Shown here: positions 53,728 through 64,000 of the stretch, one piece after another | How positions within the stretch are numbered: position 1 is the first letter of the stretch | How the letters are laid out: the number at the start of each line of letters is the position of its first letter | Origin: a virus | Taxonomy: Duplodnaviria > Caudoviricetes | IMG/VR virus record: IMGVR_UViG_3300008267_000012 | Length of the DNA: 64,000 nucleotides | Reading direction: 5' to 3' (one strand) | Made by a program: the position numbers and the translations under genes | The notes under the pieces: generated by a model | What the model saw: only the letters and a program-made list of their open reading frames with translations | Database searches by the model: none | What the model was told of the DNA's origin: nothing

Positions 53728-54513
53728 ATGAAAATTTGTAAGAAATGTTTAAACCCAAAAAATGAATCAGAATTTGGTGTTGATAAATCCAAGAAAGATG
53801 GACTATCAATTTATTGTAAGGATTGTCAAAAAGAAATAAGAGAAAAATATAAAGGCAAATATGACCATAATGAATATTATGAAAAATATAAAGAAAGGAA
53901 GAAAGAATACTATCAGGAAAATAAAGAAAAAATAAAAGAATATTATGAAACAAATAAAGAAAAAATAAGCGAAAAAAGAAAAGAATATTGGGAAGAAAAT
54001 AAAGAAAGAATAAAAGAAAAATATAAAGGTAAATATAAATATCCTTACAAACCTAGAAATTATACAGAAGAACAAAAACTTAAAAGAAAATTATACGATA
54101 AAGAATATAAACAAATCCATAAAGATAGATATAATCAAAAAAGAAGACTGTATAAAAAATTAAAAAAAGAAAATGACCCCATTTTTAAACTAAAAGAAGC
54201 ATGTAGAAAATCAATCTATATGTCAATTAAAAGAAATGGTTATACAAAAGAAACTAAAACTTATGAAATATTAGGTTGTTCATATGAAGATTTTAAAAAT
54301 CACATTGAATCACAATTTGAAAATTGGATGAATTGGGATAACTATGGTTTATGTAATAATGAATTTAATTATGGTTGGGATATAGACCACATTGTTCCTT
54401 GCGCTTCTGCTAAAACAGAAGAAGAACTTTTAAAACTAAACCATTATACTAACCTTAGACCACTATGCTCTCACATTAATAGAAATATTAAAAGAGATAG
54501 GTTGGATTTTTAA
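53728..54513 (+). CDS. HNH endonuclease with N-terminal CxxC zinc finger (homing-endonuclease-like)
   Basis: CKKC...CKDC; WDIDHIVPC...LNHYTNLRPL. Confidence 0.8.
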   Translation: MKICKKCLNPKNESEFGVDKSKKDGLSIYCKDCQKEIREKYKGKYDHNEYYEKYKERKKEYYQENKEKIKEYYETNKEKISEKRKEYWEENKERIKEKYKGKYKYPYKPRNYTEEQKLKRKLYDKEYKQIHKDRYNQKRRLYKKLKKENDPIFKLKEACRKSIYMSIKRNGYTKETKTYEILGCSYEDFKNHIESQFENWMNWDNYGLCNNEFNYGWDIDHIVPCASAKTEEELLKLNHYTNLRPLCSHINRNIKRDRLDF

Positions 54514-54639
54514 AACGAAAAATTATATAAAAAATTTTTTAACACACAATCTATTTTGGAGTTGAAAAGTTGTGCAGGAATTTTTTACAAAATTTTTTTC
54601 TAATTGTAAACTAATTTTTGTAGCCGATACATCCATGCT

Positions 54640-54720
54640 GCCCCCACATCTATGGGAGGGGGGTGGGTGGGCTGTGTTATAGGGGGGTACAGAGGGGGGT
54701 ATGCCCAGGGGGGTCTCCCT
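54640..54720 (+). other. G-rich tract with G-quadruplex potential
   Basis: GGGAGGGGGGTGGGTGGG followed by three further runs of six G in an otherwise AT-rich genome. Confidence 0.6.
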
Positions 54721-55000
54721 GACATTTCCAAATCTTTTTTCAACTTTTTCTTACATCAATCTTACATTAGGACTTTTCCCATATCGGTTAGGACTAATCC
54801 AGTATTGTACTTTGCCCAGGCGACATAGGACAAAACAATGAATGCGATTTAAGGCATCTGCAAGGCTCTACAATGAACGCAAGGTTCAAATGGTATCTGA
54901 ACCTCACCCGAAACTTTGCGTTGATTGTAGGCTGTGTTGCGCTTGAATTAGGGCATAAAAAAAGGGAGGCTTTCACCTCCCTTGTTTTGCCGTTCCGTGC

Positions 55001-55795
55001 TTAGAAAATTTCACGGAGGGCTTTCACATTGCATAGGGCTTGCAAGCGGTCATCGGCAAGCATCCGCTTCTTTTGGACATAGTACGCATTGCGGTTCAGC
55101 CACCCCTGAAGAACGCAAGCATCTGCGGTAGGTAGTGGCGAAACCTCCACCTCAATCATCCGTTCAAAGGTCTGCCAAAACCTGCGGTCTGCATTGTTAT
55201 CGGCAAGGTTGAACAAGTGGCGCACCTCTTTTTGGAGGTCAATTTCCACCTTTGACTTTGAGGCAAGTGCCATTGCCCTCTCCACCTGCGGATTAACCAT
55301 TTCGTTGTTATCATCATCGGCAACGAAGAGGCTGATGATAGCCTTAGTCTTTGAATTGCCACCTTTCTTTGCGCCATTCTGAACGCATTGGATTGAGGCT
55401 TTCAGCCAAAGCCTCCAAAAGCGACCTTGCGTAAGTGGTTCACCATTGTAGGTGAAATCTGCGTGGCTGAACCGCAAGATACCCTTTTTCTTGGTCGGGG
55501 TAATGAGGCGAAGGTATGCCTCTTGTGCAAAGTCTTCAGCGGTCTTTGCGGTAAACCTCTGACCGATACCCAAAAATGGGTATTTTCGGATAAGCATAAA
55601 GGCAATGCCTTTTGCCATAAGTTGCGCCCTTTTATTGAACCCTTTCGGGGTCATCGGGCAAACATCCATTCTCTTTACGAACTTGCAAAGAGAGATAACA
55701 CGAACCTTTTTAGGGGTGTTATCAGATGAAACAGATACAGAAGGAGTAGTGGCAACCCCGTTGCTAACTACTGAAGAAGTGATTTGATTTTTCAT
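55001..55795 (-). CDS. Putative ECF-like sigma factor / transcription regulator (GC-rich gene)
   Basis: TAEDFAQEAYLRL...FWRLWL resembles sigma region 2; C-terminal helical HTH-like segment; start set at ATG 55795 (GATATTTG-N4-ATG). Confidence 0.5.
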   Translation of the reverse strand: MKNQITSSVVSNGVATTPSVSVSSDNTPKKVRVISLCKFVKRMDVCPMTPKGFNKRAQLMAKGIAFMLIRKYPFLGIGQRFTAKTAEDFAQEAYLRLITPTKKKGILRFSHADFTYNGEPLTQGRFWRLWLKASIQCVQNGAKKGGNSKTKAIISLFVADDDNNEMVNPQVERAMALASKSKVEIDLQKEVRHLFNLADNNADRRFWQTFERMIEVEVSPLPTADACVLQGWLNRNAYYVQKKRMLADDRLQALCNVKALREIF

Positions 55796-55799
55796 AATG

Positions 55800-55832
55800 C
55801 AAATATCGGCATAAGAAGTAATACACTCCAAA
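55800..55832 (-). promoter_or_regulatory. Bacteroidota sigma-A-type promoter candidate
   Basis: Minus strand TTTG-N21-GATATTTG-CATT-ATG; same N4 geometry as four TATATTTG-N4-ATG sites elsewhere in the window. Confidence 0.5.
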
Positions 55833-55863
55833 TCTGACACAAAAATAAATTTAAAATAAACCC

Positions 55864-56147
55864 TAACTCATTGATAATCAGCGAGAAAAAAGTTGAAAAT
55901 TTTTGTAAGAAATCATAACTCACTGAAAATCAGCGACTTGAACCAGGCAATGGTATATGAACTGCGTGAGGTGTGCGTATGCGTGTGTGCGTGTATGAAA
56001 CAAAATAAATGAAACAAAAAAATTTATTTGCTGTACTGAACTAATAGACCATAGGACAAAACCAAGATTTGAATCAGAACTCGTTGAAAACCAGGCACTT
56101 AGGTCTTAATTTAGGTAGTAACCATAACTGACTGATAATCAGCGACT
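55864..56147. repeat. Four imperfect palindromic AACT-N3-TGA-N-AA(T/C)CAG repeats (IHF-site-like)
   Basis: Copies at 55864, 55916, 56078 and 56125; the 55916 copy contains AATCAGCGACTTG, matching WATCARN4TTR. Confidence 0.6.
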
Positions 56148-56457
56148 TCCTTTGTATTCGCATAACTATTTTTTTTGGTATCAGAGTACCAAAAAGGCAC
56201 ATCGTGTCTTATACGCAATGTTATGAGGCTGAAAACGCATTCTAATAACGCTGGTAAGGTTACCAAAAAACTTGGTAGAAAATAAATTTGGAAATATGGA
56301 AAATGGTATTCTGAAAAATGGGAAAAATGCCTTAGTCAAAATAATTGAGAAAAGCAAGGAATTGAAAAAATAAAATTATTTTCAAATAATTTTGGTAATG
56401 TCAAAAATCCTCCACTGGCCTGGCCCTGGCGCAAGGTGAAAAAATTTTCAGATTTTT

Positions 56458-56487
56458 TGTAAGATTTGAGAGGTGAGTTCATATACT
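56458..56487 (+). promoter_or_regulatory. Cassette promoter motif (non-coding transcript)
   Basis: TGTAAGA-N17-TATACT, not followed by ATG. Confidence 0.7.
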
Positions 56488-56492
56488 ATACT

Positions 56493-56592
56493 AAGACAAA
56501 AGCATTACTGCTTTGCAGGTATGTTTCTTTCTTATCCATTTGGTTTTTACACTTTTATAGAAAATCCCTTTGAAATTCAGAGGGATTTTTTT
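56493..56592 (+). ncRNA. Candidate small RNA
   Basis: Flanked by a cassette promoter and the hairpin AATCCCT..AGGGATT plus T-run; 5' hairpin AAAGCA-TTAC-TGCTTT. Confidence 0.45.
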
Positions 56593-56617
56593 TTATTCTT
56601 TTTTTAATAAAAAAGAA

Positions 56618-56664
56618 GAAGCCCGAACCAAGGGAAGGTTAATCGCAGGTAGTTCGCCCAAACT
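56618..56664 (+). repeat. 47-bp conserved element, copy A
   Basis: GAAGCCCGAACCAAGGGAAGGTTAATCGCAGGTAGTTCGCCCAAACT. Confidence 0.9.
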
Positions 56665-56722
56665 TTTTTAAAATAAATTAAAAATAAAAAAAGGCAATCA
56701 CTCCCGATTGCCTTTCCCGAAC

Positions 56723-56956
56723 TTACTTGCACATTGCTTTCAGTTCCGCTTTTATCTCCTTGGCTTTCTCACCTCTCCAAGAGGAAGCATTGCCAAGGAA
56801 GTAAAGAACGATTGACTTTCCCGAATCCCAACCATAATCCTGGTTTACGGAATCCATTTGCGCCATTGCATCCAAATAAGGCTTGGCTGCAAAATTGATG
56901 TTTTTCCAATCCTTCCTAACCTCGGAAGCGATTTGGCTTAGTGTTCTTGTTGTCAT
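56723..56956 (-). CDS. Small early-type hypothetical protein
   Basis: MTTRTLSQIASEVRKDW...AKPYLDAM...YFLGNASSWRG; ATG abuts the promoter motif. Confidence 0.7.
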   Translation of the reverse strand: MTTRTLSQIASEVRKDWKNINFAAKPYLDAMAQMDSVNQDYGWDSGKSIVLYFLGNASSWRGEKAKEIKAELKAMCK

Positions 56957-56961
56957 AATAT

Positions 56962-56991
56962 AGTATATGAATTGAGGTGTCATATCTTACA
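56962..56991 (-). promoter_or_regulatory. Cassette promoter (leaderless geometry)
   Basis: TGTAAGA-N17-TATACT-ATATT-ATG. Confidence 0.75.
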
Positions 56992-57013
56992 TTTTATTTT
57001 AAAATAAATTTTA

Positions 57014-57183
57014 ACAATGTCAATGTATATACAATGTAGTGGTTCTGACAATGTTAATGTATATACAATGTATGACTTTCTGTATTGTGTGTTATTTTAC
57101 ATTGTTTGCCTTTTGACAATGTAGGAACAATGTCAGGACAATGTAGGCTTATACACAATGTTATGAGAATGTTTTGACATTGT
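57014..57183. repeat. ACAATGT heptamer array
   Basis: ACAATGT at 57014, 57031, 57048, 57065, 57116, 57127, 57138, 57155; inverted ACATTGT at 57099 and 57177. Confidence 0.8.
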
Positions 57184-57193
57184 TGAAAAAGAA

Positions 57194-57223
57194 TGTAAGA
57201 TATTGACATTGAGTTCATATATT
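57194..57223 (+). promoter_or_regulatory. Cassette promoter preceding 47-nt element copy B
   Basis: TGTAAGA-N17-TATATT. Confidence 0.7.
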
Positions 57224-57228
57224 ATAAT

Positions 57229-57293
57229 GTAAACAAGATTGTTACAGAAGCCCGAACCAAGGGAAGGTTAATCGCAGGTAGTTCGCCCAAACT
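57229..57293 (+). ncRNA. Candidate small RNA: 5' hairpin plus 47-nt element copy B (57247-57293)
   Basis: Copy B is identical to copy A; preceded by hairpin TGTAAAC-AAGATT-GTTACA. Confidence 0.55.
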
Positions 57294-57325
57294 GAACTAT
57301 AAAATATATGAATAAAAAAAGTCAA

Positions 57326-57682
57326 TCAGAAATGATTGACTTTAAGTGTCACACTCTTTGGTTTCCAATTCAAACCCCAAAAAAAGCCACCGAAACACCC
57401 TGTTTGATTGTATTTATATATATCATACATAAGTATGTCTACAATTCCTTTTGCATACTCTATACCTACATATTCCCCAATTACTTGTCTGATTTGGAAA
57501 AAAGTAGTTTCCTCTTCTAAGTATTCTTGAAAAATATAGGGCAAATACTTCTTCAGTTGTTCTAAATCAGTAGACATTCCTTCTTCAGTAAGCCAATTGT
57601 CTATATACTCCCATAACCCTGATATGGATTGGAAAGCAACGCTTGAAGTACAAGTTGTGTTTACATTAGGATAATTTTCCAT
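57326..57682 (-). CDS. Early-type hypothetical protein
   Basis: 118 aa; own promoter (57713-57742) and terminator hairpin (57318-57343). Confidence 0.65.
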   Translation of the reverse strand: MENYPNVNTTCTSSVAFQSISGLWEYIDNWLTEEGMSTDLEQLKKYLPYIFQEYLEEETTFFQIRQVIGEYVGIEYAKGIVDILMYDIYKYNQTGCFGGFFWGLNWKPKSVTLKVNHF

Positions 57683-57712
57683 TTTATTTTTTTTTAGTGT
57701 TTGTTGTAATAT

Positions 57713-57742
57713 AGTATATGAACTGACCTTACAAATCTTACA
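57713..57742 (-). promoter_or_regulatory. Cassette promoter (short A-rich leader)
   Basis: TGTAAGA-N17-TATACT. Confidence 0.75.
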
Positions 57743-57762
57743 TAAATTTTTATTTTATTTTT

Positions 57763-57792
57763 TGTAAGATATTTGATATGAGTTCATATATT
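57763..57792 (+). promoter_or_regulatory. Cassette promoter preceding 47-nt element copy C
   Basis: TGTAAGA-N17-TATATT, back-to-back with the 57713 promoter. Confidence 0.7.
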
Positions 57793-57797
57793 ATATG

Positions 57798-57864
57798 GCA
57801 AACCACCTGGGTTTGCGGAAGCCCGAACCAAGGGAAGGTTAATCGCCTGTAACTTGTCCAAACT
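57798..57864 (+). ncRNA. Candidate small RNA: 5' hairpin plus 47-nt element copy C (57818-57864)
   Basis: Hairpin GCAAACC-ACCTG-GGTTTGC, then GAAGCCCGAACCAAGGGAAGGTTAATCGCCTGTAACTTGTCCAAACT. Confidence 0.55.
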
Positions 57865-57918
57865 GAAATGATAAAAAAAATTAAATAAAAAAAGGGAAGA
57901 TTTCTCTTCCCTTAGTTA

Positions 57919-58296
57919 TCAGATGAAATCTGATTTCTCTTGATACTTCTTGAAGGCAAAATCAGCACTTGGTGTATCGCCATTGAGAACGATAAGACCT
58001 GTTACCTTGGTTCTGCCTTGACCAAACTTGGCTTCCCAAATGAAAGCAGTTGCTTCCAAGATTTGGGTGTTGGTTGAATCAGTACCCATCCAAACACGGC
58101 ATTCATAAATGCCATCTTTTTCAGGTGCATCTCCAAACCACTTGAACTTATCCCAACCTCCAAATGAAGAGGCTTTGGATTCAAGTTCTCCGTGCAAGTA
58201 CACCCAAGGTGTGTACGATAAAACCTCTTCTTTGAAAGGCAGAAGAGCATTTCCTGATTCCATCAATGTTGGAACGATAGTGTGTAAGTGTGTCAT
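57919..58296 (-). CDS. Early-type hypothetical protein
   Basis: 125 aa; leaderless geometry with promoter 58302-58331. Confidence 0.65.
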   Translation of the reverse strand: MTHLHTIVPTLMESGNALLPFKEEVLSYTPWVYLHGELESKASSFGGWDKFKWFGDAPEKDGIYECRVWMGTDSTNTQILEATAFIWEAKFGQGRTKVTGLIVLNGDTPSADFAFKKYQEKSDFI

Positions 58297-58301
58297 AATA
58301 T

Positions 58302-58331
58302 AGTATATGAATTGAGATACGAAATCTTACA
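58302..58331 (-). promoter_or_regulatory. Cassette promoter (leaderless geometry)
   Basis: TGTAAGA-N17-TATACT-ATATT-ATG. Confidence 0.75.
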
Positions 58332-58355
58332 TTTTATTTTAAAAAAAAACAATCT

Positions 58356-58410
58356 ACAATGTCTTGCACAATGTCTTGTACAATGTCAATAAAAAAGGGG
58401 AACACAATGT
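58356..58410. repeat. Second ACAATGT cluster
   Basis: Copies at 58356, 58368 and 58380 (12-bp period) and at 58404 in a terminator loop. Confidence 0.7.
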
Positions 58411-58427
58411 TTCCCCTTTGAAGATTG

Positions 58428-58847
58428 TTACTTTGCTCTGCAAACTGGTCCAAAGCCAATGCTGATTGAATCAGCATCAGTCAGAGGTCTTCCGCACCTT
58501 AGACATTTGCCTAAGTGCATTACCTCCACTTGGTCAGCAACTGCTTGATGATTACCAAGTTGAATATTGTGGAGAATCCACGCAATCCCTTTGGCTGAAG
58601 GTGTATCAACCTCTTGACCTTTACGGACAACCTTGCCATCTTTAAAGAAGCCAAGATACAACCATTCAAGATAGTTGGTTTCCACTTTGATGTGGGTGTA
58701 CCATTTATCATTGAACTGCTTGCGACTTACCTTGTAGGTGAAGTCTTTACCACTTCTCTTTGAGAGTGCGGTGAACTCACCACCATTGGATTGAGTATCA
58801 CCTTGAATAAGAGAAAGAAGTGCGGAGGTAGGAACTAAATTTTTCAT
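58428..58847 (-). CDS. DUF6011-like zinc-binding protein
   Basis: C-terminal GKCLRCGRPLTDADSISIGFGPVC. Confidence 0.7.
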   Translation of the reverse strand: MKNLVPTSALLSLIQGDTQSNGGEFTALSKRSGKDFTYKVSRKQFNDKWYTHIKVETNYLEWLYLGFFKDGKVVRKGQEVDTPSAKGIAWILHNIQLGNHQAVADQVEVMHLGKCLRCGRPLTDADSISIGFGPVCRAK

Positions 58848-58870
58848 AGTGTTATTGTTTATTGTAATAT

Positions 58871-58900
58871 ACTATATGAACTCAGTTGCGAAATCTTACA
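58871..58900 (-). promoter_or_regulatory. Cassette promoter (variant)
   Basis: TGTAAGA-N17-TATAGT. Confidence 0.7.
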
Positions 58901-58978
58901 TTTTATTTTAAAATAAAAAAACCCTACCGATATAACCGATAGGGTTTCCAAGAAAAACCAATAAACACCCAAATACAA

Positions 58979-59143
58979 TCAATCCCAATTTTTTCGCTTC
59001 TGTGCGTTTCTATTATACTTTTTGGAATCCTTACCTACCTTAGTGGTAAATCTTGAATCACCATTGGTATCACGCAGATACATATCTCTTTTTATCTTCC
59101 CATAGTTAATGGGAGAAGTTGTTGTTGTTGCTGAAGTTTTCAT
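58979..59143 (-). CDS. 54-aa basic protein (not in ORF track)
   Basis: MKTSATTTTSPINYGKIKRDMYLRDTNGDSRFTTKVGKDSKKYNRNAQKRKNWD; own promoter variant and downstream terminator. Confidence 0.6.
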   Translation of the reverse strand: MKTSATTTTSPINYGKIKRDMYLRDTNGDSRFTTKVGKDSKKYNRNAQKRKNWD

Positions 59144-59148
59144 ACTTA

Positions 59149-59178
59149 TATATATGAACTCAAGTGCTAAAACTTACA
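59149..59178 (-). promoter_or_regulatory. Cassette promoter (variant, leaderless geometry)
   Basis: TGTAAGT-N17-TATATA-TAAGT-ATG. Confidence 0.6.
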
Positions 59179-59517
59179 AATAAATTTAATTCTTTTCTCT
59201 TGTGCCTTTTCGTATTGAATATCACTAAGCCAAGAAGTAGCCAAAGCAGATACACCGATACCTAACGGAATAAAAATCATTGGATTACCATTATCTTCTT
59301 TTTTATAGATGTGGTAAGAAGCGACTGCTGAAACAAAAGCAGCGACTTGTAAAACCTTAGAAGTACCTTCCAATATCTTTGCCTTCTGCAAATGGAGATT
59401 AATTTCCTTACGGACTGAATCCCTCTTTTGGCGGTACATAATGGTTTTGTAGTTAGTTTGCCCCATAACCGATGAGGCAAACAAACAAAGTACCGAAACA
59501 ATGATTATCTTCTGCAT
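59167..59517 (-). CDS. Exported/membrane protein
   Basis: Signal peptide MQKIIIVSVLCLFASSVMG|Q plus two hydrophobic segments. Confidence 0.6.
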   Translation of the reverse strand: MQKIIIVSVLCLFASSVMGQTNYKTIMYRQKRDSVRKEINLHLQKAKILEGTSKVLQVAAFVSAVASYHIYKKEDNGNPMIFIPLGIGVSALATSWLSDIQYEKAQEKRIKFICKF

Positions 59518-59717
59518 TCCCTTACGATTTTAAATTTATTCGTACCATTGATAGGGAATACCACTTCACCAACCTTGAACTCTCTATCCACCTTAATCTT
59601 GTGTGTGGTGATAGTATCGCCATCTACACGATGAGCAATAACCATTTTGGTTGTGCTTTCTATGCAAGAGGTCATCATCCCGATAACAACTGCCAATGTC
59701 AATAATCTTGTTTTCAT
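59505..59717 (-). CDS. Putative lipoprotein
   Basis: MKTRLLTLAVVIGMMTSC lipobox-like; ATG abuts the promoter. Confidence 0.6.
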   Translation of the reverse strand: MKTRLLTLAVVIGMMTSCIESTTKMVIAHRVDGDTITTHKIKVDREFKVGEVVFPINGTNKFKIVRECRR

Positions 59718-59722
59718 AATAT

Positions 59723-59752
59723 AGTATATGAATTGAAGTGTCAAATCTTACA
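59723..59752 (-). promoter_or_regulatory. Cassette promoter (leaderless geometry)
   Basis: TGTAAGA-N17-TATACT-ATATT-ATG. Confidence 0.75.
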
Positions 59753-59759
59753 ATTTATT

Positions 59760-59984
59760 TTATTTCTTTTCTACAAGAACCCAATTATGTTGGGCAGTAT
59801 GAATCACAATGGCTTGATGCTTCTTTCCATCAAAGCCAACATATTCCAATGTTTTTTGTGATGCTTCATGAGGTTCAAGAGGTTTATCTTTTGAATTTGA
59901 ATGCTCAACAAAAGCACATATTACCGCAGTAAACATAATTGCAAACAATGCAACTATTGCTACTTTATAATAATTATCTTTCAT
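59760..59984 (-). CDS. Small membrane protein
   Basis: MKDNYYKVAIVALFAIMFTAVICAFV...; start overlaps the upstream stop (ATGA). Confidence 0.55.
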   Translation of the reverse strand: MKDNYYKVAIVALFAIMFTAVICAFVEHSNSKDKPLEPHEASQKTLEYVGFDGKKHQAIVIHTAQHNWVLVEKK

Positions 59985-60106
59985 AACCCAATTGTTAAAA
60001 TTAATAACCGACAAATGATAATGAAAAGTGAAAAGGAAATACCCAATACCACGATAACATCAAAGACCATATTTAGCCTTCTCTGTTGCTTATAAAAATC
60101 TTCCAT
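59981..60106 (-). CDS. 41-aa membrane protein (not in ORF track)
   Basis: MEDFYKQQRRLNMVFDVIVVLGISFSLFIIICRLLILTIGL; fits exactly between its neighbours. Confidence 0.5.
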   Translation of the reverse strand: MEDFYKQQRRLNMVFDVIVVLGISFSLFIIICRLLILTIGL

Positions 60107-60107
60107 A

Positions 60108-60347
60108 TTATTTCATTGTACTAAAACCATTTGAACAAACTATTCTATCTGAGGCATACAATTTTTCTTGAAAACCAGCCTTGCGGATTTCTTCAACTTC
60201 TTTGGTAGACATACCACCTTCTGAAATAGGCGCATCCAATAAGACCTTTGCAAATCCAACGAACAAGCCAAAACTTTTTCTATAAGCATCTGCAAGAATT
60301 TCCTTTTGCAAATTTTTCGGGAGAGATAATAACATTTCTTTAATCAT
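60108..60347 (-). CDS. Early-type hypothetical protein
   Basis: Start reassigned to ATG 60347 after the A-rich leader of promoter 60372-60401. Confidence 0.6.
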   Translation of the reverse strand: MIKEMLLSLPKNLQKEILADAYRKSFGLFVGFAKVLLDAPISEGGMSTKEVEEIRKAGFQEKLYASDRIVCSNGFSTMK

Positions 60348-60371
60348 TTTTTTATTGTTTTGATGTAATAT

Positions 60372-60401
60372 AGTATATGAACTCAATGCTGAAATCTTAC
60401 A
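60372..60401 (-). promoter_or_regulatory. Cassette promoter (short leader)
   Basis: TGTAAGA-N17-TATACT. Confidence 0.75.
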
Positions 60402-60465
60402 ATTTATTTTAAAATAAAAAAACCCTCTGCCATTTCTGACAAGAGGGTTCTATGAACAACAAACA

Positions 60466-60768
60466 CTAAACTTTCAATAACCTTTGAATCAAATCAGTTA
60501 TTTCATTTCTGTTTTGATAATACAGAATATCATCATTTTCACTAAGTTGAATCCATTCGTGTCCTTCTTTGTACCAAGCAGCAACCTCAAAGGTATGGAT
60601 ACCATCACCACCTAATCTTGGTTGATGTTCGGTTGGAAAGCCACCGATAACGGAAATGATTACCCCATTGGGTAATTCGTGCATTGAAGCAACCAAACCC
60701 TGACCTCCTGGATGAACCCCAAATACGAGGTCATCAAATGAACTTATTTCTTTCTTACAGATTTCCAT
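60466..60768 (-). CDS. Early-type hypothetical protein
   Basis: 100 aa; own promoter and terminator. Confidence 0.65.
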   Translation of the reverse strand: MEICKKEISSFDDLVFGVHPGGQGLVASMHELPNGVIISVIGGFPTEHQPRLGGDGIHTFEVAAWYKEGHEWIQLSENDDILYYQNRNEITDLIQRLLKV

Positions 60769-60791
60769 TTCTTAAATGTTTATTGTAATAT

Positions 60792-60821
60792 AGTATATGA
60801 ATTGAAGTGTCAAATCTTACA
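60792..60821 (-). promoter_or_regulatory. Cassette promoter (short leader)
   Basis: TGTAAGA-N17-TATACT; leader AATAAACATTTAAGAA identical to that of the 61199 promoter. Confidence 0.75.
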
Positions 60822-60866
60822 ATTTATTTTAAAATAAAAAAAGGGAGTATTTCTACTCCCTTAATT

Positions 60867-61175
60867 TTACTTTACAAGAAAGTCAAAACCACCAACCTTT
60901 CCCACATTCCGACCATTGATACCAAGTATTCGGCAAATCAATGCACCTAACTTTTTGGTTCTCATATTGGCGATGAGAGAACCTTGCCACTTCCCTTCAG
61001 TTTCAACTGAGGGTGAAAAGTTAAGTGACCCGACTTCACGAATAAGCCATTGGTCATCTAACCTATGCTTTTCTCTAAACTTAGAGATTTCCCCTAAGAT
61101 GAAAAGATGTGTACCTTTGGGAGTTTCAACGATTAAATCCCATTTGCCTTTTGACTCAAAGATGTATGCAACCAT
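60867..61175 (-). CDS. Early-type hypothetical protein
   Basis: 102 aa; own promoter and terminator. Confidence 0.65.
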   Translation of the reverse strand: MVAYIFESKGKWDLIVETPKGTHLFILGEISKFREKHRLDDQWLIREVGSLNFSPSVETEGKWQGSLIANMRTKKLGALICRILGINGRNVGKVGGFDFLVK

Positions 61176-61198
61176 TTCTTAAATGTTTATTGTAATAT

Positions 61199-61228
61199 AG
61201 TATATGAACTCACCTTACAAATCTTACA
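61199..61228 (-). promoter_or_regulatory. Cassette promoter (short leader)
   Basis: TGTAAGA-N17-TATACT. Confidence 0.75.
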
Positions 61229-61248
61229 TAAAATTTTATTTTATTTTT

Positions 61249-61278
61249 TGTAAGATATAAGACTTGAATTCATATATT
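61249..61278 (+). promoter_or_regulatory. Cassette promoter preceding 47-nt element copy D
   Basis: TGTAAGA-N17-TATATT, back-to-back with the 61199 promoter. Confidence 0.7.
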
Positions 61279-61283
61279 AAGGT

Positions 61284-61341
61284 GTAGCAATACAGAAGCC
61301 CGATTCAAGGGAAGGTTTATCGCCTGTAACTTGCCCATACT
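61284..61341 (+). ncRNA. Candidate small RNA: 5' GNRA hairpin plus 47-nt element copy D (61295-61341)
   Basis: TGTA-GCAA-TACA, then GAAGCCCGATTCAAGGGAAGGTTTATCGCCTGTAACTTGCCCATACT and a T-run. Confidence 0.55.
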
Positions 61342-61370
61342 TTTTTTAGATATGGGCAAAAAAAAGAGGG

Positions 61371-61643
61371 TTAATACCCTCTCTCTTTCTTGTACTTCTC
61401 TTGCACCTTTTCAAGTTGCGCCAACGCATCCTTGTTGCTCCTTGCAGTCAGACCATAGTAGTCTTTAATCTGCTTGGCAGTTATGCCCTTGAATAGCATT
61501 CCCTTTGAAAGGATTTTCATTTGGAAGATGTGGGTGTTCAACTGATAGCCAAAGTAATCAATTTCCTTATCACCCATACTTACTTTCGGTGTTTGCAGTT
61601 CTCCCGACCTTGCAGAAGCAACTGCTTGTTCAAATTGTGTCAT
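61371..61643 (-). CDS. Early-type hypothetical protein
   Basis: Start reassigned to ATG 61643 abutting the promoter. Confidence 0.65.
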   Translation of the reverse strand: MTQFEQAVASARSGELQTPKVSMGDKEIDYFGYQLNTHIFQMKILSKGMLFKGITAKQIKDYYGLTARSNKDALAQLEKVQEKYKKERGY

Positions 61644-61648
61644 AATAT

Positions 61649-61678
61649 AGTATATGAATTCACTTGCCAAATCTTACA
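61649..61678 (-). promoter_or_regulatory. Cassette promoter (leaderless geometry)
   Basis: TGTAAGA-N17-TATACT-ATATT-ATG. Confidence 0.75.
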
Positions 61679-61719
61679 TTTTATTTAAAAAAAAAGGGAG
61701 TATTTCTACTCCCTCTCTT

Positions 61720-62604
61720 TTAGACAAGTGCAACTCCCTTTCTTTCAGCGACTTCCGTAAGGAATGAAAGAGCATCGGTGTTGAACTTCATATTACCACC
61801 CAACAGATTGCCGTAGGTATCGGTAGAAGATTTGGTGTGTGTGGTGTAGTGTGTTACACCATTGAAAGCACCCCAAAGATTCATACCCAAATCCGCAGTT
61901 TCTCTGTTCAGAGAATCCATCAAAGCCACCTTAGTATTACCCTTTCTTACAGAAAGAATATCACCTTCAGCAATCTTTGTTTCATCAATGTTCAGAAGCC
62001 TATTGGCAAGGGCATCAAGAATAGACCTATCAATCTTGATTTCAGACATTTTCTGAAAGATGATTGCCTCTTGTTCCTTTTCAGCACGGAAGCCACGAAC
62101 AAGGTCAATAAACATATCCACCTTGTAGTTGTGGTTCTTCGTGTGCCGAACCTTCAACCCTTGCATCACCCGACCCCATTGGTTGAAACAACGAAGCAAG
62201 ATGTTTACACTACCAACGAAAAGTGGTGTAGTGCCATCGTGTGAATTACCAAATACAAGGTAGTTCTCACTTTTCAGACCAAGATACTGATGCACAAGGT
62301 CATCGGTTGCTTTCAGATAGGCAAGTACCTTAGTACCGCCACGAAATTCAGCGAACCCTTCAAGTTCGTAACCCGAAGCATCAGCAAGTTGCCTTGCGTG
62401 TTCTTCAAAGGTTCGGTTCTTTGTTTCCGTATATGAATCACGGAACAAACTCAATGTTTCCAAAGTATCACTCCTTTTCAGAGCAACATATCTTTCTTCG
62501 GGAACGAACAGACCACTTTTTGTTTGTGTGTAAGGTGTGTGTCTTTCCACCTCCCAACCAAGGCTTTCCTTGAAATCCTTGACTGCATTTGATTTGCTTG
62601 TCAT
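61720..62604 (-). CDS. DUF932-family protein
   Basis: GGTKVLAYLK, YLVFGNSHDGTT, LRCFNQ, VRHT, NLWGAFNGVTHYTTH motifs. Confidence 0.78.
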   Translation of the reverse strand: MTSKSNAVKDFKESLGWEVERHTPYTQTKSGLFVPEERYVALKRSDTLETLSLFRDSYTETKNRTFEEHARQLADASGYELEGFAEFRGGTKVLAYLKATDDLVHQYLGLKSENYLVFGNSHDGTTPLFVGSVNILLRCFNQWGRVMQGLKVRHTKNHNYKVDMFIDLVRGFRAEKEQEAIIFQKMSEIKIDRSILDALANRLLNIDETKIAEGDILSVRKGNTKVALMDSLNRETADLGMNLWGAFNGVTHYTTHTKSSTDTYGNLLGGNMKFNTDALSFLTEVAERKGVALV

Positions 62605-62609
62605 AATAT

Positions 62610-62639
62610 AGTATATGAATTGAGATACGAAATCTTACA
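62610..62639 (-). promoter_or_regulatory. Cassette promoter (leaderless geometry)
   Basis: TGTAAGA-N17-TATACT-ATATT-ATG. Confidence 0.75.
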
Positions 62640-62690
62640 ATTTATTTTAAAAAAAAGGGAGAAATTTCTTCTCCCTTGATTTTCAGTTAC

Positions 62691-63188
62691 TTACTCACCA
62701 ATCTTAATGATATTGCTTTCTTTGGGGCAAATCACCATAGACTGCTTAGTTAGTTTCTCTGCATCAGAGGCGGTCAGATACTTTTTGAATGTATCTTCCT
62801 GCACCTGAATACCATCTACCATAAAGGTATAGGTAATTTCGCAGTTATCCGTAGGGTATAGTCTGATATACCTTTGTTCCTCCGTTTCGTTTTTTGGAGT
62901 ATGCAAAATGGTATATGGGAAATGCTCCCAACGACCCCAAGGGAGTGAACCAACCTCACCTCTTGTTCCATCGGCAATGCCTTCAAGAACAGGTTTGAGG
63001 TTTGCGTAATTGATACCTGCCCTAAACACACCTTTGGTATGCTTGGTCAGTTTTTTTCCTTTGAAAGCCTTAGATGGCTTAACATCGGAAATGAACTCTG
63101 CTGAAAGGAATTGACCTTTGCAGGTAAAGAAACGGCTTGCCACTCCCGACAGACCGCTTGGCACTTGTAATTGAGAGGTATTACTCAT
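62691..63188 (-). CDS. Early-type hypothetical protein
   Basis: 165 aa; own promoter and terminator. Confidence 0.65.
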   Translation of the reverse strand: MSNTSQLQVPSGLSGVASRFFTCKGQFLSAEFISDVKPSKAFKGKKLTKHTKGVFRAGINYANLKPVLEGIADGTRGEVGSLPWGRWEHFPYTILHTPKNETEEQRYIRLYPTDNCEITYTFMVDGIQVQEDTFKKYLTASDAEKLTKQSMVICPKESNIIKIGE

Positions 63189-63193
63189 AATAT

Positions 63194-63223
63194 AGTATAT
63201 GATTTCACTTGCGAAATCTTACA
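63194..63223 (-). promoter_or_regulatory. Cassette promoter (leaderless geometry)
   Basis: TGTAAGA-N17-TATACT-ATATT-ATG. Confidence 0.75.
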
Positions 63224-63270
63224 AAAATAAATAAAAAAAGGGAGAAATTTCTTCCTCCCTTGATTTTCAG

Positions 63271-63660
63271 TTAGTTACTCTCAGAATGTTCTTGAACAAT
63301 CTCCATTCGGGTTTCGTGTTCCTCTTTAAGGTCTGTAATAGCATCCTTAATGAGGTCTAAAACATTCCTTTTCTGCTCATAAGCATTAACCTCAAAATCA
63401 TCAAGTTTAATGGTATTACCATAACTAATTTCAAATGATTCATTTGAGATTTCAAAGTTGCTTGCATCATCAAAGTCATAGCAATCAAGAACATCAATAA
63501 TCTTATCCCTAACTAAGTTAAGAATAGCAATGAAATCTTGCTTTGACTCTTCCACCTTCGGTTCTTCTGAAACCATATTTAAGGTGTTTACAACATCATC
63601 TTTGGTGAAGAGGCTTCCAAGCGAATCTTGCACCTTTGCGATTACTTCTTGTTTTTTCAT
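63271..63660 (-). CDS. Early-type acidic hypothetical protein
   Basis: Start reassigned to ATG 63660 after an A-rich leader. Confidence 0.65.
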   Translation of the reverse strand: MKKQEVIAKVQDSLGSLFTKDDVVNTLNMVSEEPKVEESKQDFIAILNLVRDKIIDVLDCYDFDDASNFEISNESFEISYGNTIKLDDFEVNAYEQKRNVLDLIKDAITDLKEEHETRMEIVQEHSESN

Positions 63661-63683
63661 TTTATTTATTTTGTTTGTGATAT

Positions 63684-63713
63684 AGTATATGAACTCGTTG
63701 TTCAAATCTTACA
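63684..63713 (-). promoter_or_regulatory. Cassette promoter (short leader)
   Basis: TGTAAGA-N17-TATACT. Confidence 0.75.
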
Positions 63714-63759
63714 TTTTATTTTAAAAAAAAAGGGGAAATTTCTTTCCCCTTAATTTAAA

Positions 63760-64000
63760 TTAGATAAGTGGCAGATGGTCAGATGGATTGAAATTATCAT
63801 TCTCCTTTTTGAATAGTTCCACCATCTGTTTGCAAGTGGTGTGAGAATATTGATTGCGACCATCATAACGATAGTCATCAGATGCAACATACTCAATCCA
63901 CCTCAAACAAAGTCTTGTAAAAGATTGTTGGAGAGTACGATGCTCACTACCCATTGCATTTAAAAATCCTTGCTTATCACAACCGAAGTTGTTTACGAAG
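63760..64000 (-). CDS. Early-type hypothetical protein, 5' end beyond window
   Basis: The frame stays open from 63954 to the window edge. Confidence 0.6.
   Translation of the reverse strand, partial: FVNNFGCDKQGFLNAMGSEHRTLQQSFTRLCLRWIEYVASDDYRYDGRNQYSHTTCKQMVELFKKENDNFNPSDHLPLI

Follow-up and report, generated by a model that had tools for sequence, protein, structure and literature searches.

A probable new family of multi-copy structured small RNAs encoded in the early regions of freshwater phages

Hairpin RNAs can be encoded right behind phage early promoters; the put RNAs of HK022 and the nut boxB elements of lambda and P22 act in cis on the genes downstream. The promoter-early stem-loop (PeSL) cassettes of T4-type phages, attributed to Arbiol, Comeau and Krisch in 2010, are said to be regulatory DNA modules and not RNA genes. 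Pseudo-ToxI of phage PhiTE, known from work of Blower et al. in 2012, is reportedly a multi-copy structured RNA, with units of 35-45 nucleotides (nt), by which an RNA-binding defence protein of the host is neutralised, and the RNA anti-CRISPRs or solitary repeat units of Camara-Wilpert et al., from 2023, are said to be phage-encoded, promoter-driven small RNAs serving as molecular mimics or decoys. Here we describe a family of short elements found in a 64,000-nt stretch of DNA from an uncultured tailed freshwater phage (IMG/VR record IMGVR_UViG_3300008267_000012; hereafter the window, taken at its full length), where four copies of a 47-nt core, each preceded by a hairpin of variable sequence, are scattered through the early gene array.

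Like the orphan structured RNA motifs of Weinberg et al. (2010; PMC2864571) and of later Rfam motif sets, these elements are short and non-coding, with covarying stems and conserved junctions, and recur in metagenomic and phage DNA; those motifs, too, had no known function at discovery. Unlike them, the present elements occur in 4 to at least 8 copies within 5-18 kilobases (kb), each with its own promoter, and form two classes that differ by a flipped stem and are often convergent. The setting resembles the PeSL arrays in that many small early genes are each bracketed by a repeated promoter and terminator, at a hot spot of modular shuffling, but the 47-nt core family constitutes an extra, non-coding cargo within such an array. 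Very probably, the elements represent a real and previously undescribed family of structured RNA genes. We class them as an unusual variant within the structured small RNAs of phages, forming a family of their own but falling short of a system of a new kind.

Four cores in the window and their relatives

All four copies of the core (A to D, Table 1) lie on the plus strand, with spacings of 629, 571 and 3477 nt between consecutive copies. They had been reported as dispersed units in a first-pass annotation made from the sequence alone, and a pattern scan, a repeat finder and a covariance model returned the same coordinates. A degenerate 29-nt pattern (GAAGCCCGANNCAAGGGAAGGTTNATCGC), allowing up to three mismatches, has four matches in the window, all on the plus strand, against 0.00 expected from 100 shuffles. 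The repeat finder groups the same four cores into one family (D5), and an unfiltered run of the covariance model over the whole window yields only these cores, at E values from 4e-20 to 3e-11, the next best match standing at 0.23. Every copy is placed in an intergenic spacer, downstream of the terminators of minus-strand genes. The initial description of the elements as antisense to the early gene array is correct as regards their orientation, which is opposite to that of the array, but not in the sense of overlap, as none of them overlaps the array's open reading frames as delimited.

Pattern scans and the covariance model, the latter built from 19 copies and then run on the window plus 28 loci that derive from freshwater metagenomes and two IMG/VR contigs, identified 77 members in all. 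Among the covariance-model matches, 64 belong to class 1 (E < 1e-9) and about 13 to class 2 or variant forms (E from 3e-7 to 3e-2). The exact-pattern scan of IMG/VR returned two contigs, G001 and G002; a 3′-shifted class-1 pattern found these two only, and a class-2 pattern gave no match in that database. The same scan of Joint Genome Institute (JGI) metagenomes gave 33 loci, of which 23 are true, mostly from lakes, and ten were judged to be chance matches and set aside. Copies are clustered: four within 5.5 kb in G001 (170 kb, 52% complete according to CheckV), five within 9 kb in G002 (73.6 kb, 22% complete), six in 11 kb in metagenome locus L025, and at least eight in one 18-kb metagenome contig. 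The completeness estimates for G001 and G002 suggest that these phages are large. G001 comes from a sister phage that is 77-83% identical to the window in nucleotide sequence, is collinear with it and carries all four copies at orthologous positions; the hairpin in front of copy C has been swapped between the two genomes despite the orthologous core.

The window encodes a tail sheath protein and a DNA polymerase, the best match of the latter among cultured phages being to Salinibacter phages at 23% identity. No match to cultured phages (INPHARED) was obtained by megablast of 10 kb or by blastn of two 71-nt copies. When one genome for each of 185,579 species was scanned with the exact 19-base core pattern, four matches appeared, none in Bacteroidota; these were judged by eye to be fortuitous, three of the four lying in GC-rich DNA and mostly looking like coding sequence. 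In these sequence searches the family is confined to phage contigs. The sequencing runs that contain window DNA stem from many studies and are metagenomes of lakes and fresh water. No named family had been recognised at the outset, and this agrees with an Rfam 15 cmscan of positions 54000-64000, in which none of 27 weak matches (E up to 10) was centred on a core; the only overlap with copy A consisted of AT-rich chance matches (Phe_leader, E about 1, on both strands). A literature search with the core sequences found nothing relevant. The phages described here possibly belong to the "moraphages", large aquatic Bacteroidota phages treated in a 2025 paper (PMC12619734) in which none of these contigs is named and small RNAs go unmentioned.

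Table 1. Coordinates of the elements and associated features (window positions unless a locus is named)
Feature	Position	Strand	Remarks
Fourth plus-strand promoter motif	56458..56485	+	separate unit of about 100 nt, ending at terminator 56559-56591; kept in sister phage
Terminator-like hairpin with T-run	56559..56591	+	intrinsic; between promoter 56458 and copy A
Copy A, P1	56596..56617	+	AU-rich hairpin TTCTTTTTT / AAAAAAGAA, abutting the core; same hairpin in sister phage (L001)
Copy A, core	56618..56664	+	GAAG linker, P2 CCC/GGG with loop GAACCAA, AAGGTTAATCG linker, P3; then T6; 74.8 bits
Copy B, promoter motif	57194..57221	+	from motif scan
Copy B, P1 hairpin	57228..57246	+	TGTAAAC...TGTTACA
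Copy B, core	57247..57293	+	80.8 bits; no T-run; tail AAACTGAAC
Copy C, promoter motif	57763..57790	+	back to back with minus-strand promoter 57715-57742
Copy C, P1 hairpin	57798..57816	+	GCAAACC...GGTTTGC; sister-phage orthologue has a different hairpin, TGTA-GCAA-TACA
Copy C, core	57818..57864	+	51.9 bits; tail AAACTGAAAT
Copy D, promoter motif	61249..61276	+	back to back with minus-strand promoter 61201-61228
Copy D, P1	61283..61294	+	4-bp stem, GCAA tetraloop
Copy D, core	61295..61341	+	48.1 bits; T7, then TATGGGC, complementary to the 3′ side of P3
Early genes opening with a P1-type hairpin (related phages)	L015:3299-3373(-), L035:495-546(-), L003:4578-4640(-), L012:5050-5113(+), L033:2138-2191(+), L021:413-467(+)

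Anatomy and covariation of the RNA

The elements share a common layout. At the 5′ end stands P1, a hairpin of 4-9 base pairs (bp), free in sequence and rich in G-U pairs, followed by a purine linker, for which class 1 has GAAG and class 2 has AGGU, AGAU or GGU. Next comes P2, a helix of 3 bp or, in class 2, of 4 bp, closed by a GA(N3-4)AA loop and joined through a nearly invariant single-stranded segment, AAGRUKNAUCG, to P3. The latter approximates N-G-G-U...R-Y-C-N, with a loop beginning A-R, and leads into a tail of AUAC, AAAC or UUAC. P2 is flipped in class 2 (GGR / loop GAGCAAA / YCC), a class whose members are often convergent with those of class 1 and of which the window holds no copy. 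Of the core's 47 columns, 27 do not vary across 45 sequences, the majority of them being unpaired.

Hairpins of differing sequence had been assigned to copies B, C and D, and all three were confirmed (Table 1); the assignment fell short in leaving out copy A, whose own AU-rich hairpin abuts the core and is conserved in the sister phage. Homologs from other phages retain the 5′ hairpin by means of compensatory and G-U changes, as anticipated by the suggestion that structure is kept without sequence. The same check on homologs revealed a covarying stem, P2, within the core itself.

In the covariance alignment, 92% of P1 cells are paired and five of the seven pairs show double changes. Wobble cells (U-G and G-U) are frequent, numbering, for example, 39, 21 and 11, and on the other strand they would give C-A mismatches. 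G-U pairs are strand-specific, and their frequency favours an RNA read from this strand of the element over a DNA palindrome. P2 takes six Watson-Crick combinations in 76 distinct sequences and is never unpaired (CCC/GGG in 56, GGG/CCC in 7, CCG/CGG in 6, GGA/TCC in 5, CCA/TGG and TCG/CGA in 1 each). For the structure as a whole, 91.2% of cells are paired, as compared to 39-51% when the partners are slid by one to three columns, and the observed covariation score was reached in none of 500 shuffles. An ungapped MAFFT alignment shows no variation of P2 within class 1 and 82% pairing in P3; RNAalifold, applied to the ungapped alignment, recovers P2 alone.

These data also bear on the idea that the element works at the DNA level, as a recombination site, an origin component or a protein-binding site marking cassette boundaries. 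Its location in a mosaic array of promoter-gene-terminator cassettes would suit such a role, as would the presence, just upstream of copy B, of ACAATGT repeat arrays that could be iterons or operators. Yet the many strand-specific G-U pairs fit RNA rather than duplex DNA, and the changes in P2 are compensatory, not sequence-preserving. In addition, the element is present in only 4 of the approximately 17 cassettes, and its precisely placed upstream promoter is conserved across two promoter types (see below). We therefore regard a DNA-level role as very unlikely. As for the ACAATGT heptamers, dense arrays are found at 57014-57190, upstream of the copy B promoter, and at 58350-58410, downstream of the gene at 58428-58847; the first falls inside a segment that aligns to G001 at 77% identity, and operator or iteron sites are possible.

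A protein-coding frame is excluded because the P2 loop undergoes 1-nt changes in length and the stems change in a compensatory fashion. A tRNA-like nature was also dismissed, ARAGORN finding only three tRNAs, at 48 kb. Additional helices drawn by eye, namely GGGAAGGUU with the 3′ side of P3, CCCGA/UCGGG, AAGGU with an ACYUU tail, and the GAAG linker with the P3 loop, are not kept across the family. Mutual information revealed neighbour effects only, with no further long-range pair or pseudoknot.

Promoters, 3′ ends and insulation of the units

The motif TGTAAGA-N17-TATA occurs at 17 sites between 56458 and 63713, of which 16 are exact and one departs from it at a single position; 13 lie on the minus strand and four on the plus strand. 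With up to one mismatch allowed, the whole window has 21 matches as against 4.6 expected. The 13 minus-strand copies precede small leaderless genes, and alignment with these cassettes is the basis on which the start site for the phage motif was inferred. In agreement with the first-pass annotation, three of the plus-strand motifs stand directly before copies B, C and D. The TGTAAGA-type promoters embed a TTTG that is possibly a host -33 element. The fourth plus-strand motif opens a unit (56458-56595) that has a CTGC-TTT-GCAG 5′ hairpin and a strong terminator. This unit is conserved in G001 (L001) whereas its small reading frames are not; lying just upstream of copy A, it may specify another small RNA.

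Most other members use a different kind of promoter. Bacteroidota promoters have the consensus TTTG followed, after about 19-20 nt, by TAnnTTTG. Of the 77 members, 59 match this host-type TTTG...TAnnTTTG pattern and 10 the phage-type motif, the other eight appearing by eye to be host-type variants. The phage-type motif precedes the elements in the window, G001 and L014, and the Bacteroidota-type consensus does so in all other contigs. A promoter of its own at a fixed distance from a 5′ structure, as expected of a small RNA (sRNA) gene, is thus found by sequence in 69 of the 77 members, which match one pattern or the other. With either type, unrelated as the two are, transcription is predicted to begin at the first bases of P1, where the early reading of the window had put it. 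This convergence suggests that expression, rather than a DNA site, is what seems to be conserved.

The situation is more varied at the 3′ side. Copies A and D had been said to end in T-runs; T6 and T7 do follow them, but a simple terminator scan calls no terminator at either place. Copies B and C are without a T-run and run towards bidirectional hairpins 25-45 nt further on. Among the 77 members, 37 have a U-run within 15 nt of P3, 13 are followed by an A-run and then the next promoter, and 18 by a convergent partner; six have some other context and three are cut by the end of the locus. A second terminator is often present behind members with a U-run. In many copies the U-run is followed by TATGGGC, whose complement is the 3′ strand of P3 together with AUA (window 61334-61358, L015:5451-5560, L025:6700-6815, L006:1825-1930). 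This heptamer precedes an A-run that serves as the terminator T-run of the convergent gene, and it allows another hairpin to be drawn, one whose loop contains the U-run.

For many members, one or two terminators come next and then a gene with its own promoter, an arrangement from which the members are predicted to be separate transcription units. Such insulation bears on whether the RNA might act in cis as an antitermination element, modifying the polymerase that transcribes it in the manner of HK022 put or lambda nut. The elements do lie immediately downstream of early promoters and comprise two or three hairpins, and P2 (GCCC-GAAACAA-GGG), by eye, may resemble boxB hairpins. Unlike put and nut, however, the units are insulated by terminators and face convergent genes. 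What follows the terminators is convergent or separately promoted, leaving nothing on the same strand to antiterminate into, and elements are found in both orientations relative to neighbouring genes. The insulation argues against a cis role of this kind, to which we attach almost no weight.

Where a convergent partner is present, it is usually of class 2, and the two 3′ ends are about 20 nt apart across a spacer containing ACUGAAA. Pairs of class-1 and class-2 (or variant) members are seen at L015:1713-1866, L020:1116-1268, L025:8021-8176, L011:2187-2340, L021:728-880 and 1568-1721, L019:1528-1681 and L034:1579-1733; these pairs have no U-run, and their spacer carries ACUGA[AG]A. Read-through of convergent pairs would produce long complementary 3′ extensions, making double-stranded RNA or RNase III processing possible.

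Hairpins of the P1 type are not restricted to the small RNA genes. In related phages, early protein-coding transcripts open with a host-type promoter and a P1-type hairpin (TGTCATC...GATGGCA; Table 1), followed by a C-rich leader (CTCTTAACCCC..CGCACT) and then ATG. A 5′-terminal hairpin seems to be a general feature of the early transcripts of these phages, and P1 is probably a generic 5′-end module, a general stabiliser of the 5′ end. Because P1 is shared with early mRNAs, any specific function of the small RNA must lie in P2, the linker and P3.

Candidate partners and modes of action

We tentatively favour, as the leading candidate among several, a mechanism in which the RNA is abundant, acts in trans and binds or decoys a protein. 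The four elements would be genes for structured RNAs of about 65-80 nt, starting at or within 1-2 nt of P1, a hairpin in which pairing is kept and sequence is free. Behind it would come the core as laid out above, that is the GAAG purine linker, P2 with its GA(N3-4)AA loop, AAGRUKNAUCG and P3, with a U-run in about half of the cases. Made early from several strong promoters per genome, the RNAs would work in trans, the invariant unpaired nucleotides and the P2 loop forming a recognition surface for a protein that, owing to the high gene dosage, would be titrated or redirected early in infection. The most plausible target would be a host RNA-binding or defence factor. For a trans-acting RNA with many invariant unpaired bases, short helices and very high dosage, a specific partner is the explanation that fits best.

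The mechanism ascribed to pseudo-ToxI is of the kind proposed here, although no similarity of sequence or structure is known to us. Units of the ToxI type form tandem direct repeats and are released by processing of a single transcript, in contrast to the dispersed units of the present family, each having its own promoter and 5′ hairpin. Tandem repeats of the sort that define type III antitoxins are absent, and no toxin gene was recognised nearby by Pfam.

Several observations weigh against this interpretation. On the structural side, the covariation counts were taken from an alignment fitted to the covariance model, P3 is weak (82% paired, with little double change), and single-sequence folding energies are no better than those of shuffled sequences (z from -0.3 to +0.4), so that the case for structure rests on covariation and not on stability. 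On the transcriptional side, copy A has no clear promoter, being cut off from the plus-strand promoter at 56458 by the strong plus-strand terminator at 56559-56591, which makes its promoter assignment uncertain. No canonical terminator was called by the simple scan at copies A and D, and 3′ ends are undefined because an A-run follows 13 members, and a convergent partner 18 others, in place of a U-run. No RNA run was found among the runs that contain the stretch. Finally, no partner protein came to light, the neighbouring early genes matching only DUF932 and DUF6011 in Pfam. Searching for a partner by co-occurrence across contigs was uninformative, since the contigs represent homologous early regions with many small genes in common.

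The two early-array genes with a Pfam match, both on the minus strand, lie at 58428-58847 (DUF6011, over the C-terminal 29 residues) and 61720-62604 (DUF932), and their homologs recur in metagenome contigs carrying the RNA family. The minus-strand gene at 55001-55840 has no Pfam match at E up to 0.01. An RNA-guided mode of transcription that relies on dCas12f and sigma-E (PMC13472631) was considered and rejected, as the variable parts of the elements are self-paired hairpins and not guides, and the nearby gene at 55001-55840, a candidate sigma-like gene, has no Pfam sigma match.

Second to protein binding, and clearly less probable, we rank a regulator acting by base-pairing, in which an invariant single-stranded seed (CAAGGGAAGGUUAAUCG in class 1, AAGGUGUAUCG in class 2) would pair with a conserved host mRNA or stable RNA and thereby silence or redirect some function of the host at an early stage of infection. 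The long, invariant, mostly unpaired segment is what such a regulator would require, and the layout is that of an sRNA, with a 5′ hairpin, a seed and a 3′ hairpin followed by a U-run in 37 of the 77 members. On the other hand, the two classes differ inside the putative seed, and so high a gene dosage is unusual for a catalytic-type antisense regulator. Nor did the base-pairing role raised initially find a target in the 64-kb window, the only DNA scanned: searches for the exact reverse complement, for a 9-mer seed and by duplex energy returned only the elements themselves, and the best other duplex sites (-25.4 and -22.3 kcal/mol) were not judged to rise above the shuffled controls, whose minima range from -20.9 to -24.9.

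In third place comes a small-molecule aptamer or a ribozyme, a reading we find doubtful, in which a compact tertiary fold would act as a sponge for a ligand, such as an immune signalling nucleotide, or undergo self-cleavage. Short covarying stems together with at least 21 invariant unpaired positions in some 47 nt are indeed reminiscent of small aptamers and ribozymes. Against this, the riboswitch and ribozyme models of Rfam give no match at E values up to 10, and the mutual information analysis gives no additional long-range pair or pseudoknot. To our knowledge, moreover, there is no precedent for free-standing, terminated aptamer genes serving as sponges.

The first-pass annotation had further proposed an RNA anti-CRISPR, a solitary repeat unit; such an RNA would imitate a CRISPR repeat of the host and engage Cas proteins in an unproductive way. 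The element's size, which is that of a repeat, its promoter and its place in the early region of a phage would be apt for such a role, and some copies read GTT...ACTGAAAT across their 3′ half. This proposal did not survive comparison across the family, and we now give it hardly any credence. The ACTGAAA tail, and with it the GTT...GAAA pattern, is present in a minority of members only. Contrary to what is said of RNA anti-CRISPRs, the repeat-like unit is not conserved; the best-conserved part (GAAG, P2 and linker) lies outside it and is not repeat-shaped. The flipped P2 of class 2 is incompatible with mimicry of a fixed repeat. Lastly, the scan of 185,579 species' genomes with the 19-base core gave only matches judged to be chance, the 3′ half by itself (GGTTNATCG...CC[AT]NAC(TGAAA)) not having been scanned against CRISPR repeats.

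A more specific version of a sponge, RNA-based counter-defence, would have the compact folded RNA, produced in great excess from many early promoters, sequester a component of host immunity. This component might be an effector that binds RNA, or else a signalling nucleotide of the immune response, captured in the manner of a riboswitch aptamer. We consider such counter-defence unlikely; if true, large Bacteroidota phages would possess anti-defence sponges of a new class, not made of protein.

The small RNAs of phages have been charted much less than their proteins, and there is almost nothing for phages of Bacteroidota or for uncultured large freshwater phages. The multi-copy genomes, the two precise promoter types, the 27 invariant nucleotides out of 47 and the existence of two classes all point to a conserved partner that is important early in infection. 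With the alignment of 77 sequences and the covariance model the RNA family becomes searchable, and the RNA is short enough for direct biochemistry. If the partner turned out to be a factor in defence or in host takeover, the family would represent a new RNA tool in the conflict between phages and their hosts.

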